Below are positions 51,971 through 53,584 of a stretch of DNA of 64,000 nucleotides, piece by piece. The translations under genes were made by a program, and so were the position numbers. Under the pieces are notes generated by a model that saw only the letters and a program-made list of their open reading frames with translations, was not told the DNA's origin and made no database searches. Positions within the stretch are counted from its first letter, which is position 1; every line of letters begins with the position of its first letter. Source of the stretch: a virus; IMG/VR virus record IMGVR_UViG_3300020048_000056, positions 41,798 to 105,797 of that record; one strand, written 5' to 3'.

Positions 51971-52120
51971 ATGGCTAAGAACGCAGGACTTCATCACTCT
52001 GAATCATACTTAAGAAAGCGTTTGTATCTGGATAAGAAAACACCAGAGCAGATTGCCATTGAGTGTGGGGTAAGTTTACAAATCATCTATCGACAACTAA
52101 AAAAGTTTGGATTAAAATGA
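51971..52120 (+). CDS. Small HTH protein
   Basis: TPEQIAIECGVSLQIIYRQLKKFGL. Confidence 0.7.
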   Translation: MAKNAGLHHSESYLRKRLYLDKKTPEQIAIECGVSLQIIYRQLKKFGLK

Positions 52121-52323
52121 GTGATCAGGTAAATCATCCTATCCATTACACGAGTCACCCCTCTGGAATAGAGGTAATTCAAATTACTGAGCATATGAAT
52201 TTTTGTCTTGGTAATGCTATTAAATATATTCTAAGGTCTGATTTAAAAGGTAAGCAAATTGAGGACTTAAAGAAGGCTGTTTGGTATATTAATCGGGAGA
52301 TTAATCGCCTAGAACAAACCTAA
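52117..52323 (+). CDS. DUF3310 family protein
   Basis: DQVNHP.HY...GIE.I...FCLGNAIKY..R...K..EDLKKA.WY. Confidence 0.88.
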   Translation: MSDQVNHPIHYTSHPSGIEVIQITEHMNFCLGNAIKYILRSDLKGKQIEDLKKAVWYINREINRLEQT

Positions 52324-52338
52324 AATAAATAAACATCG

Positions 52339-52354
52339 TGTGATTCATTTCACA
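52339..52354. promoter_or_regulatory. CRP/GlxR-family binding site
   Basis: Exact TGTGA-TTCATT-TCACA in the intergenic region upstream of a promoter. Confidence 0.7.
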
Positions 52355-52432
52355 TTTTGCTAAAATACCTATCAATCGTGCATAATTGCTGTTATGCTAG
52401 AACCTGTTGCCGCCGCTATAGGAGGAAATAAC

Positions 52433-52981
52433 ATGACGAAAACGAAACTGGTAGGAGGAGTTATGGCTAGCATTATGGCAGTAGCATTAGTTACCGCATC
52501 TGCAAGTTCTGCTTCAACCGAACAGGTATATGCTAAGTCAAATATACCTATTGCGACGGAGGCTTTGCTAAAGCCTGTCGTTAATAAAACAAAGGCTAAA
52601 TCAAAGCCAAACAATGTCTGTAAAAGCTGGCTCGCCAAGGAATTGAAGAGTGCAGGATTTAAAGACAAGGGATTGAAGATCGCATGGTCAATTGCTATGC
52701 GTGAAAGTGGAGGAAGGGCTAACGCAATTTCTTCCACTGGAGACTACGGAGTCTTCCAGTTCAACCGCGCAGCGTGGTCAGGGCAACCTTGGTGGAATAC
52801 ACATAAGTTGCTCACACGCAAATACAATATCATGGTTGCCTACAAGATATCTCAACATGGCACAACATGGTATCCCTGGGACATAAATGGTCAAGGGAAG
52901 CACCTTAAGAGGTATACACCTAACAGTGTTTACCACAAGTACGAGGCTTGGTACAGTAAGTATCCAAGCAACTGTAAGTAA
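52433..52981 (+). CDS. Secreted lysozyme-like/SLT lytic transglycosylase
   Basis: Signal peptide (ending ASA-SSA); IAMRESGG catalytic Glu, DYGVFQFN, W.PW; AGGAGG SD. An in-frame ATG at 52394 is also possible. Confidence 0.82.
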   Translation: MTKTKLVGGVMASIMAVALVTASASSASTEQVYAKSNIPIATEALLKPVVNKTKAKSKPNNVCKSWLAKELKSAGFKDKGLKIAWSIAMRESGGRANAISSTGDYGVFQFNRAAWSGQPWWNTHKLLTRKYNIMVAYKISQHGTTWYPWDINGQGKHLKRYTPNSVYHKYEAWYSKYPSNCK

Positions 52982-53045
52982 GTAGTGAGCAGGGCAGGAA
53001 CCCTAAGTTATCTATTGGTGGCAACAATCCTGCCCTGCCACTGCT
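52981..53045 (+). ncRNA. 3' stem-loop whose loop is complementary to the 5' UTR/RBS of the upstream gene
   Basis: 18-bp stem (AGTAGTG-a-GCAGGGCAGGA / TCCTGCCCTGC-CACTGCT) with a 28-nt loop containing GGTGGCAACA. Confidence 0.6.
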
Positions 53046-53059
53046 ATAATTGGAGTCTT

Positions 53060-53584
53060 ATGAGCGAAATAGTAGATCACATTGAAGAAGTCAATAGAGT
53101 TGCATCAGAGTACATTAAGGGGTCTAATGAGTCTGAAATATCTAAGCAACTGGATATCCCACGAGCAAGAGTCTCATCTCTTCTTAGAGAGTGGAAGAGC
53201 ATGGCAAGCAATTCAGAGGCTGTCAGAGCACGAGCGCGTGAGGCTCTATCAGGAGCAGATCAACACTATTCTAAACTCATCAAGCAAGCATATGAAGTTA
53301 TCGATGAAGCAACTTTTAACAGCAACCTATCTGCAAAGACTGCTGCAATTAAACTCATCCTTGATATAGAATCTAAGCGTATTGATATGCTTCAAAAGGC
53401 GGGACTCCTAGAAAATAAGGAACTTGCAGATCAGTTACTAGAAACAGAACGTAAGCAGGAACTGTTGATGAAGGTTCTTGTTGAAGTGTCAGGGTCATGT
53501 GCGGTATGTAAGCCCAAGGTTCTTAAGCGCCTAGCAGAGGTTTCTGGTCCCAATGGAGAAGCCGTGGTTATCAATGGCGATTGA
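53060..53584 (+). CDS. terS: Terminase small subunit
   Basis: N-terminal HTH, helical body, overlaps TerL; TGCTATAAT at 53042-53050. Confidence 0.75.
   Translation: MSEIVDHIEEVNRVASEYIKGSNESEISKQLDIPRARVSSLLREWKSMASNSEAVRARAREALSGADQHYSKLIKQAYEVIDEATFNSNLSAKTAAIKLILDIESKRIDMLQKAGLLENKELADQLLETERKQELLMKVLVEVSGSCAVCKPKVLKRLAEVSGPNGEAVVINGD

Follow-up and report, generated by a model that had tools for sequence, protein, structure and literature searches.

The transglycosylase locus and its 3' hairpin

The window (the whole stretch of DNA analysed, 64,000 nucleotides) forms the final 64 kb of a phage genome that is complete at 105.8 kb and carries terminal repeats. The locus considered here carries a gene whose product matches the Pfam family SLT_3 (9.8e-12), and also Transglycosylas and SLT, with recombination and replication genes (PD-(D/E)XK nuclease, DUF3310) on one side and terminase genes on the other. 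Forming a self-contained unit, the gene has an extended -10 promoter to itself (Table 1). Judged from its sequence, the product would be a Sec-type secreted Rpf/SLT-like protein, and lethality is not indicated by this analysis. The phage GenBank collection gave no match for the DNA and none for the enzyme, and so offered no cultured relatives for comparison. Since the large terminase is closest to those of Streptomyces and Gordonia phages (53% identity), and since the complete cassette is found on contigs binned with a Candidatus Nanopelagicales MAG (L273) and an Aquiluna MAG (L291), the host is very probably a low-GC freshwater actinobacterium. These two contigs may be prophages or mis-binned phage DNA. 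Nanopelagicales phages have been isolated together with their hosts (PMC10202952).

Table 1. Features of the transglycosylase locus (positions are those of the window)
Feature	Position	Strand	Basis
TGTGA-N6-TCACA CRP/GlxR-like box, upstream of the promoter and outside the RNA element	52339-52354	+	sequence
Extended -10 promoter element TGTTATGCT (P1) of the transglycosylase gene	52390-52398	+	conserved in relatives
5'-terminal leader segment pairing with the 3' loop (core GUUGCCGCC, 52406-52414); predicted transcript start ~52405	52405-52415	+	pairing, covariation, promoter position
Shine-Dalgarno AGGAGG (52420-52425) and start ATG (52433-52435); neither in the conserved pairing	52420-52435	+	sequence
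SLT_3/Rpf-like transglycosylase gene, 182 aa, secreted, N-terminal signal peptide	52433-52981	+	ORF and Pfam
Conserved coding block: small hairpin GGUAUAU (52525-52531)/AUAUACC (52542-52548), then UAUUGCGACGG	52525-52559	+	synonymous-site conservation, RNAalifold
3' hairpin, 7 + 11 bp stem, 28-nt loop; begins at the stop codon (TAA, 52979-52981)	52981-53045	+	folding, stem covariation
A/U-rich 5' half of the loop, starting ACC; linker spanning the leader-loop helix	53000-53015	+	loop comparison
Loop segment complementary to the mRNA 5' end (core GGUGGCAAC, 53017-53025), 1 nt short of the 3' arm	53016-53026	+	pairing and covariation
Small-terminase-like gene: extended -10 TGCTATAAT (53042-53050), GGAG (53052-53055), ATG (53060)	53042-53062	+	sequence

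The promoter is a constant part of the arrangement, with TGnTAnnnT at a fixed place upstream of the leader in 58 of 61 unique relatives; TANNNT is the actinobacterial type of -10 element. The first pairing base of the leader lies 4-8 nt (mode 6-7) past the extended -10, which is where the promoter consensus predicts +1, and this conserved spacing supports the transcript start near 52405 that had been proposed from the window sequence. The CRP/GlxR-like box, perfect in the window, is recurrent rather than universal: among 67 unique upstream regions from relatives, 20 have it.

An 18-bp stem (52981-52999/53028-53045) with a 28-nt loop had been described directly after the transglycosylase stop codon, and these coordinates are right. 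The lower stem (52981-52987/53039-53045) has 7 bp, one of them G.U, and is separated by a bulged A52988 from an upper stem of 11 bp (52989-52999/53028-53038) that closes the loop (53000-53027). The predicted folding energy is -38.3 kcal/mol (z = -5.07), and none of 200 shuffled sequences was as stable. The hairpin is kept directly 3' of the stop codon in all 200 scored loci, starting 0-7 nt past the stop. Its stem is free to vary in sequence, and all 12 consensus stem pairs carry compensatory double changes among 43 relatives; the 3' end of the loop nevertheless holds GGUGGCAAC or a variant of it, although the stem around it varies. The linker that makes up the rest of the loop is 13-21 nt long in relatives, with A(A)ACC at its start in most. 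A search with the Rfam 15 covariance models gave no relevant match, the only hits within 52000-53400 being sub-threshold ones at chance level to CRISPR-DR61 (E=1.3) and mir-1976 (E=1.9).

The overlap that had been noted between the stem and the terS promoter is also there: in most relatives, as in the window, the lower 3' arm of the hairpin shares sequence with the extended -10 of the small-terminase-like gene, and CTGCTATAAT is conserved downstream of the hairpin in most of them. A terminator scan found no intrinsic terminator in the window, where the hairpin tail is AUAAUUGG, with no U-run, as in most relatives. A U-run does follow the hairpin, together with a different downstream gene, in L030/31, L034, L079-81, L084, L119, L127 and L227. 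There the hairpin is an ordinary terminator, and at least these phages therefore have a monocistronic message that stops at it; from loci of the window type, which have no U-run, transcripts may read on into the terminase genes.

Pairing of the leader with the hairpin loop

The original prediction paired the loop of this hairpin with the 5' untranslated region of the same gene, through 11 bp including two G-U pairs. This pairing is present in the window, between leader positions 52405-52415 (UGUUGCCGCCG) and loop positions 53016-53026 (UGGUGGCAACA), and its energy of -19.2 kcal/mol lies far beyond the -7.4 +/- 2.9 kcal/mol of shuffled loops, none of 300 shuffles reaching -19.2. The prediction went further, adding two shorter blocks (CUAU 53012-15 with AUAG 52418-21, and GUUAU 53007-11 with AUAAC 52428-32), so that 20 consecutive loop bases would clamp the leader and bulge out the Shine-Dalgarno core. 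These blocks can be read in the sequence, but they amount to chance-level energy and are absent from relatives: in the window, the segment from Shine-Dalgarno to AUG pairs with the remaining loop at -5.4 kcal/mol against -5.5 +/- 2.1 for shuffles, and across 78 unique relatives the corresponding values are -2.5 and -2.8. The clamp thus falls away, and the conserved part is a duplex of 9-13 bp at the extreme 5' end only. On this comparison, the Shine-Dalgarno sequence and the AUG lie outside the conserved pairing and are predicted to stay unpaired.

The loop 9-mer GGTGGCAAC is a single copy in the entire 105.8-kb genome, with no further copy of the pairing motif in the window or elsewhere in the genome, which rules out a dispersed operator or repeat.

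To follow the pairing through relatives, we collected loci by protein-based searches of viral contigs, by a leader-pattern search, and by a pattern for a conserved block in the coding region, blind to both pairing partners, which was run against viral contigs, species genomes and metagenomes. Loci with complete leader, gene and 3' flank numbered 200 and gave 78 unique leader/loop combinations. In each of the 200, the loop is complementary to the leader; pairing energies run from -15 to -22 kcal/mol across all unique relatives, whereas shuffled loops give -6 to -9. Several lineages lengthen the helix to 12-13 bp, each with a different sequence. The leader motif is exclusive to the front of this gene, other matches to the leader pattern having neither the open reading frame nor the loop.

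Individual base pairs were counted in 61 unique combinations with the two motifs anchored without gaps; a MAFFT alignment, in which the window leader was shifted by 3 columns, was left out. Core positions 1-9 are canonical in 547 of 549 cells, and double compensatory changes are seen at positions 4, 5, 8 and 9. Positions 4 and 5 change together from C-G to U-A, so that GUUGUUGCC stands with GGUAACAAC (L223, L225 and relatives), and position 8 changes from U-A to C-G (GCUGUCGCC with GGUGGCAGC; L244, L396). Position 9 has changed in two ways, from G-C to C-G (CUUGCCGCC with GGUGGUAAG; L079, L145, L148) and from G-C to A-U (AUUGCCGCC with GGUGGCAAU; L034/L189). Where only one side of the core has changed, the result is always G.U or A-U. 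Cognate partners pair better than permuted ones (18/20000), and a register shift of 1-3 nt brings pairing down to 22-70%. A naive all-against-all covariation scan of the gene alignment returned 912 'compensatory' column pairs, mostly transition-linked third-codon positions, and is uninformative because shared ancestry alone makes Y/R column pairs covary. The case therefore rests on position-matched changes in otherwise invariant motifs, together with the permutation and register controls. On these grounds the complementarity is both conserved and covarying, and the relatives strongly support a real long-range pairing between leader and hairpin loop in the mRNA.

The departures from Watson-Crick pairing also have a direction. 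Non-Watson-Crick cells comprise 68 G.U against one A.C, and therefore the pairing occurs in the + strand (sense) RNA, in line with the earlier argument from the two G-U pairs of the window that selection acts on + strand RNA. This asymmetry bears on a reading at the level of DNA, in which the inverted copies would be bound by one protein, as an operator pair or DNA loop, or would be the ends of an invertible segment. The copies do flank the gene, one just past its promoter and the other ~20 bp before the -10 of the next promoter. A strand bias of 68 to one is meaningless for duplex DNA, however; four positions have changed in step on both sides, 60 of the 61 combinations depart from a perfect repeat, and the loci retrieved with the coding-block pattern, a search that does not depend on the leader, included none in inverted orientation. 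On the strand asymmetry and the absence of inverted forms we rejected the invertible segment and the operator pair, a reading that seems to us hardly credible.

At position 3, 60 of the 61 combinations retain a G.U, and it is never replaced by G-C. This points to a gap in the model as it stands and suggests a second partner for the loop U, the leader G or both.

Some loci depart from the usual correspondence of leader and loop. L035/L195 and L119/L343 share the leader AUGUCUUGCCGCC but differ in their loops. L035 combines a loop of the common type, mismatched (C.C) at position 9, with a 3' context of the terminase type, and looks like a recombinant between two cassette types; in L119, the pairing is restored through a one-base bulge.

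Constraint in the coding region and a second enzyme family

Synonymous variation is suppressed in the coding block (VYAKS..P.AT, 52514-52567), where third-codon identity is 0.92-0.94 compared with 0.65 for the whole gene. RNAalifold predicts a small hairpin within it, with compensatory changes in the window and in L127, and the invariant UGCGACGG follows. The block may belong to the same RNA device as the leader-loop pairing.

A second set of loci (L120, L127, L135, L140, L146, L136, L150, L164, L171, L223, L244) encodes secreted proteins of 175-198 aa that share 25% identity with the window enzyme over 114 residues, have no Pfam match and carry the motif ..RESRF.YRAAN.SSSARGAYQFLD.. These loci retain the promoter, the leader, the first codons and N-terminus, the coding block and the 3' hairpin with its loop motif. 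As the cassette is kept across enzymes only 25% identical, the RNA signals are more constrained than the enzyme.

A proposed closed message and its alternatives

The duplex has a defined position at both ends. On the loop side it comes to within 0-2 nt of the hairpin's 3' arm, and thus the leader-loop helix can stack on the stem, placing the 5' end of the message at the junction. On the leader side it stops 3-5 nt upstream of a full-strength Shine-Dalgarno sequence, AAGGAGGA, and takes up nearly all the single-stranded leader before it. The pairing and this geometry are established by sequence and covariation, and from them we infer the function. The purpose of pairing the ends is probably control of the lifetime or use of the message. 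The reading we prefer, at a probability of roughly 0.55, is that a conserved pseudoknot, formed over a long range in the RNA, closes this short phage message and guards its buried 5' end against decay. The pseudoknot joins the predicted first 9-13 transcribed bases to the 3' half of the hairpin's large apical loop; the new helix can stack on the hairpin stem, with the A/U-rich half of the loop crossing it. Closed in this way, the message would hide its 5' end from actinobacterial RNase J, RNase E and pyrophosphohydrolase while the hairpin blocked 3' exonucleases, and only complete transcripts would become long-lived. A single-stranded region before the Shine-Dalgarno sequence, the standby site, aids initiation; a helix ending 3-5 nt before a very strong Shine-Dalgarno sequence may remove that region and so lower initiation, which would give a stable, moderately translated message.

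We favour protection of the 5' end because the pairing fits +1, as expected of a 5'-end protector, and because there is a precedent in the hbs mRNA of Bacillus subtilis, in which a 14-bp, -19 kcal/mol pairing of 5' and 3' UTR next to the terminator restricts cleavage of the leader by RNase (Braun, Durand & Condon 2017, PMC5737220). Conserved complementarity of that type (~10-14 bp, joining the leader to the 3' UTR close to the terminator) is present here, with 9-13 bp in relatives, and the two share an intramolecular pairing of similar size and energy and a short monocistronic mRNA with a strong Shine-Dalgarno sequence. They differ in that the 5' partner of hbs is internal to a long structured leader, whereas that of the phage mRNA is the extreme 5' end, and in that the 3' partner of hbs is single-stranded just upstream of the terminator, whereas in the phage it lies inside the hairpin loop and gives a pseudoknot. 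A simpler 5' stem-loop could protect a 5' end, and the long-range design hints at a further function that this reading does not capture.

The original prediction took the pairing for a lock on translation like those of hok and aapA, the full-length mRNA being inert, with its ribosome-binding region clamped by the 3' loop, until a later release, for example by 3' processing, so that a dangerous wall hydrolase is restricted. The general likeness of a message folded back on itself stood up. Conserved pairing of the very 5' end with the 3' region is the hallmark of tac/fbi in hok of plasmid R1 (PMC9841398) and is found in aapA1 of Helicobacter pylori (PMC5416894), and at the phage locus, too, the extreme 5' end (at the predicted +1) is paired with the 3' region, as the covariation attests; a stable closed full-length form and a potentially harmful product would be further points in common. 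The consumption of the leader by the pairing also fits a lock, as does the conserved G.U, which hints at alternative partners, and RNAalifold predicts that the leader could, as in hok, pair alternatively with a site early in the coding region (GCGACGG, 52553-52559, in the coding block). That pairing, however, is worth only ~-10 kcal/mol and ranks 10th-25th among ~175 coding 15-mers. The part of the analogy that did not hold is the clamp itself, its extension being at chance level and missing from relatives. In hok, the ucb and dcb boxes hide the Shine-Dalgarno sequence, 3' trimming opens the fold, the open reading frame is that of a small toxin and there is an antisense RNA, whereas none of these was found at the phage locus: no conserved anti-Shine-Dalgarno pairing was detected in the window or the 78 unique relatives, a small toxic membrane peptide is absent, the locus encoding instead a 182-aa SLT_3/Rpf-like enzyme secreted by Sec, and no antisense RNA is known. 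The Shine-Dalgarno sequence is free, moreover, and the 3' partner is shielded in the loop, sheltered from 3' trimming. Silencing of a lethal hydrolase is a possible candidate function, though we consider a lock of the hok type unlikely, and the geometry suits 5'-end protection at least as well as silencing.

Closure could also serve to destroy the message, if the coaxial leader-loop and stem helix (~30 bp) marked the finished mRNA for cleavage by RNase III, a negative control like that of icaR or the sib retroregulation of lambda. An 18-bp stem with an abutting duplex of 9-13 bp would make a suitable substrate, and in Staphylococcus aureus an anti-Shine-Dalgarno motif (UCCCC) in the icaR 3' UTR covers the Shine-Dalgarno sequence and triggers RNase III (Ruiz de los Mozos 2013, PMC3868564). 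The icaR and phage messages are alike in that a 3'-UTR element pairs with its own 5' UTR for post-transcriptional control, but the phage Shine-Dalgarno sequence is outside the duplex, and a 3' element complementary to it is absent, such complementarity being at chance level in the window and the 78 unique relatives. The phage helix is nicked and interrupted by a bulge, and such strong conservation over very divergent enzymes would be an odd route to mere destruction of a message; we judge this reading improbable, and a trans-acting RNA equally so. Here the hairpin, released or made separately (~65-100 nt), would act through its loop on the 5' ends of new transglycosylase mRNAs; in favour of this, the loop motif is exposed in a stable hairpin, the only target site in the genome is the gene's own leader, and a -10-like sequence of the TGGTAT(A/T)A type lies in the last codons of both gene families. 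That sequence doubles as a conserved Trp-Tyr codon pair, however, and a cis interaction accounts equally well for a duplex that adjoins the 3' arm and begins at +1.

Closure of an RNA by its own 3' hairpin is familiar from eukaryotic RNA viruses. In flaviviruses, through cyclisation sequences, and in tombusviruses, through the kissing loops of 3' translation enhancers, a 3' hairpin loop or sequence pairs with the distant 5' end; these closures act in genome replication or in cap-independent delivery of factors in eukaryotic cells, whereas the phage mRNA is a message of bacterial type with a Shine-Dalgarno sequence. A bacterial-type counterpart of viral cyclisation would have the 5' end wound through the closed 3' loop and stacked on the stem, as a knot-like, exonuclease-resistant substitute for a cap, with the stop codon, at the hairpin's foot, brought within a few nanometres of the Shine-Dalgarno sequence so that terminating ribosomes could re-initiate on the message they had just read; we offer this as a speculation that is quite unlikely to be right. 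The invariant GGU of the loop resembles the Shine-Dalgarno variant AGGUG and might hold a 30S subunit once the leader is released.

Very few conserved 5'-3' pairings within bacterial or phage mRNAs are known (hok and its relatives including aapA1, icaR, hbs), most of them documented in a single species. The present cassette brings about 200 environmental sequences with natural compensatory mutations, a defined geometry, and retention despite divergence of the enzyme. It differs from the known cases in that the extreme 5' end is joined to the inside of a terminal hairpin loop, as a pseudoknot, and in its unusually broad natural covariation. The cassette is thus a clean system for the effects of mRNA closure on decay and translation in bacteria with RNase J, and it is relevant to the dosing of a secreted Rpf-like wall enzyme by phages that infect two abundant freshwater groups, Nanopelagicales and Aquiluna.

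Two further arrangements in the gene concern where translation might begin. At 52558-52567, an internal GGAGG has an in-frame codon 2-5 nt downstream, TTG in the window but ATG in many relatives (e.g. L005-L016), an arrangement that is not conserved in the second enzyme family and that could give a form without the signal peptide. Nearer the start, in 52433-52465, the first 8 codons are frozen at synonymous sites (0.93), and the gene contains a second UAGGAGG (52452-52458) that precedes by 4 nt an in-frame AUG, that of Met11 (52463). Initiation at this AUG would remove both lysines of the signal peptide, and the site could be a dual start or a place where ribosomes are held.
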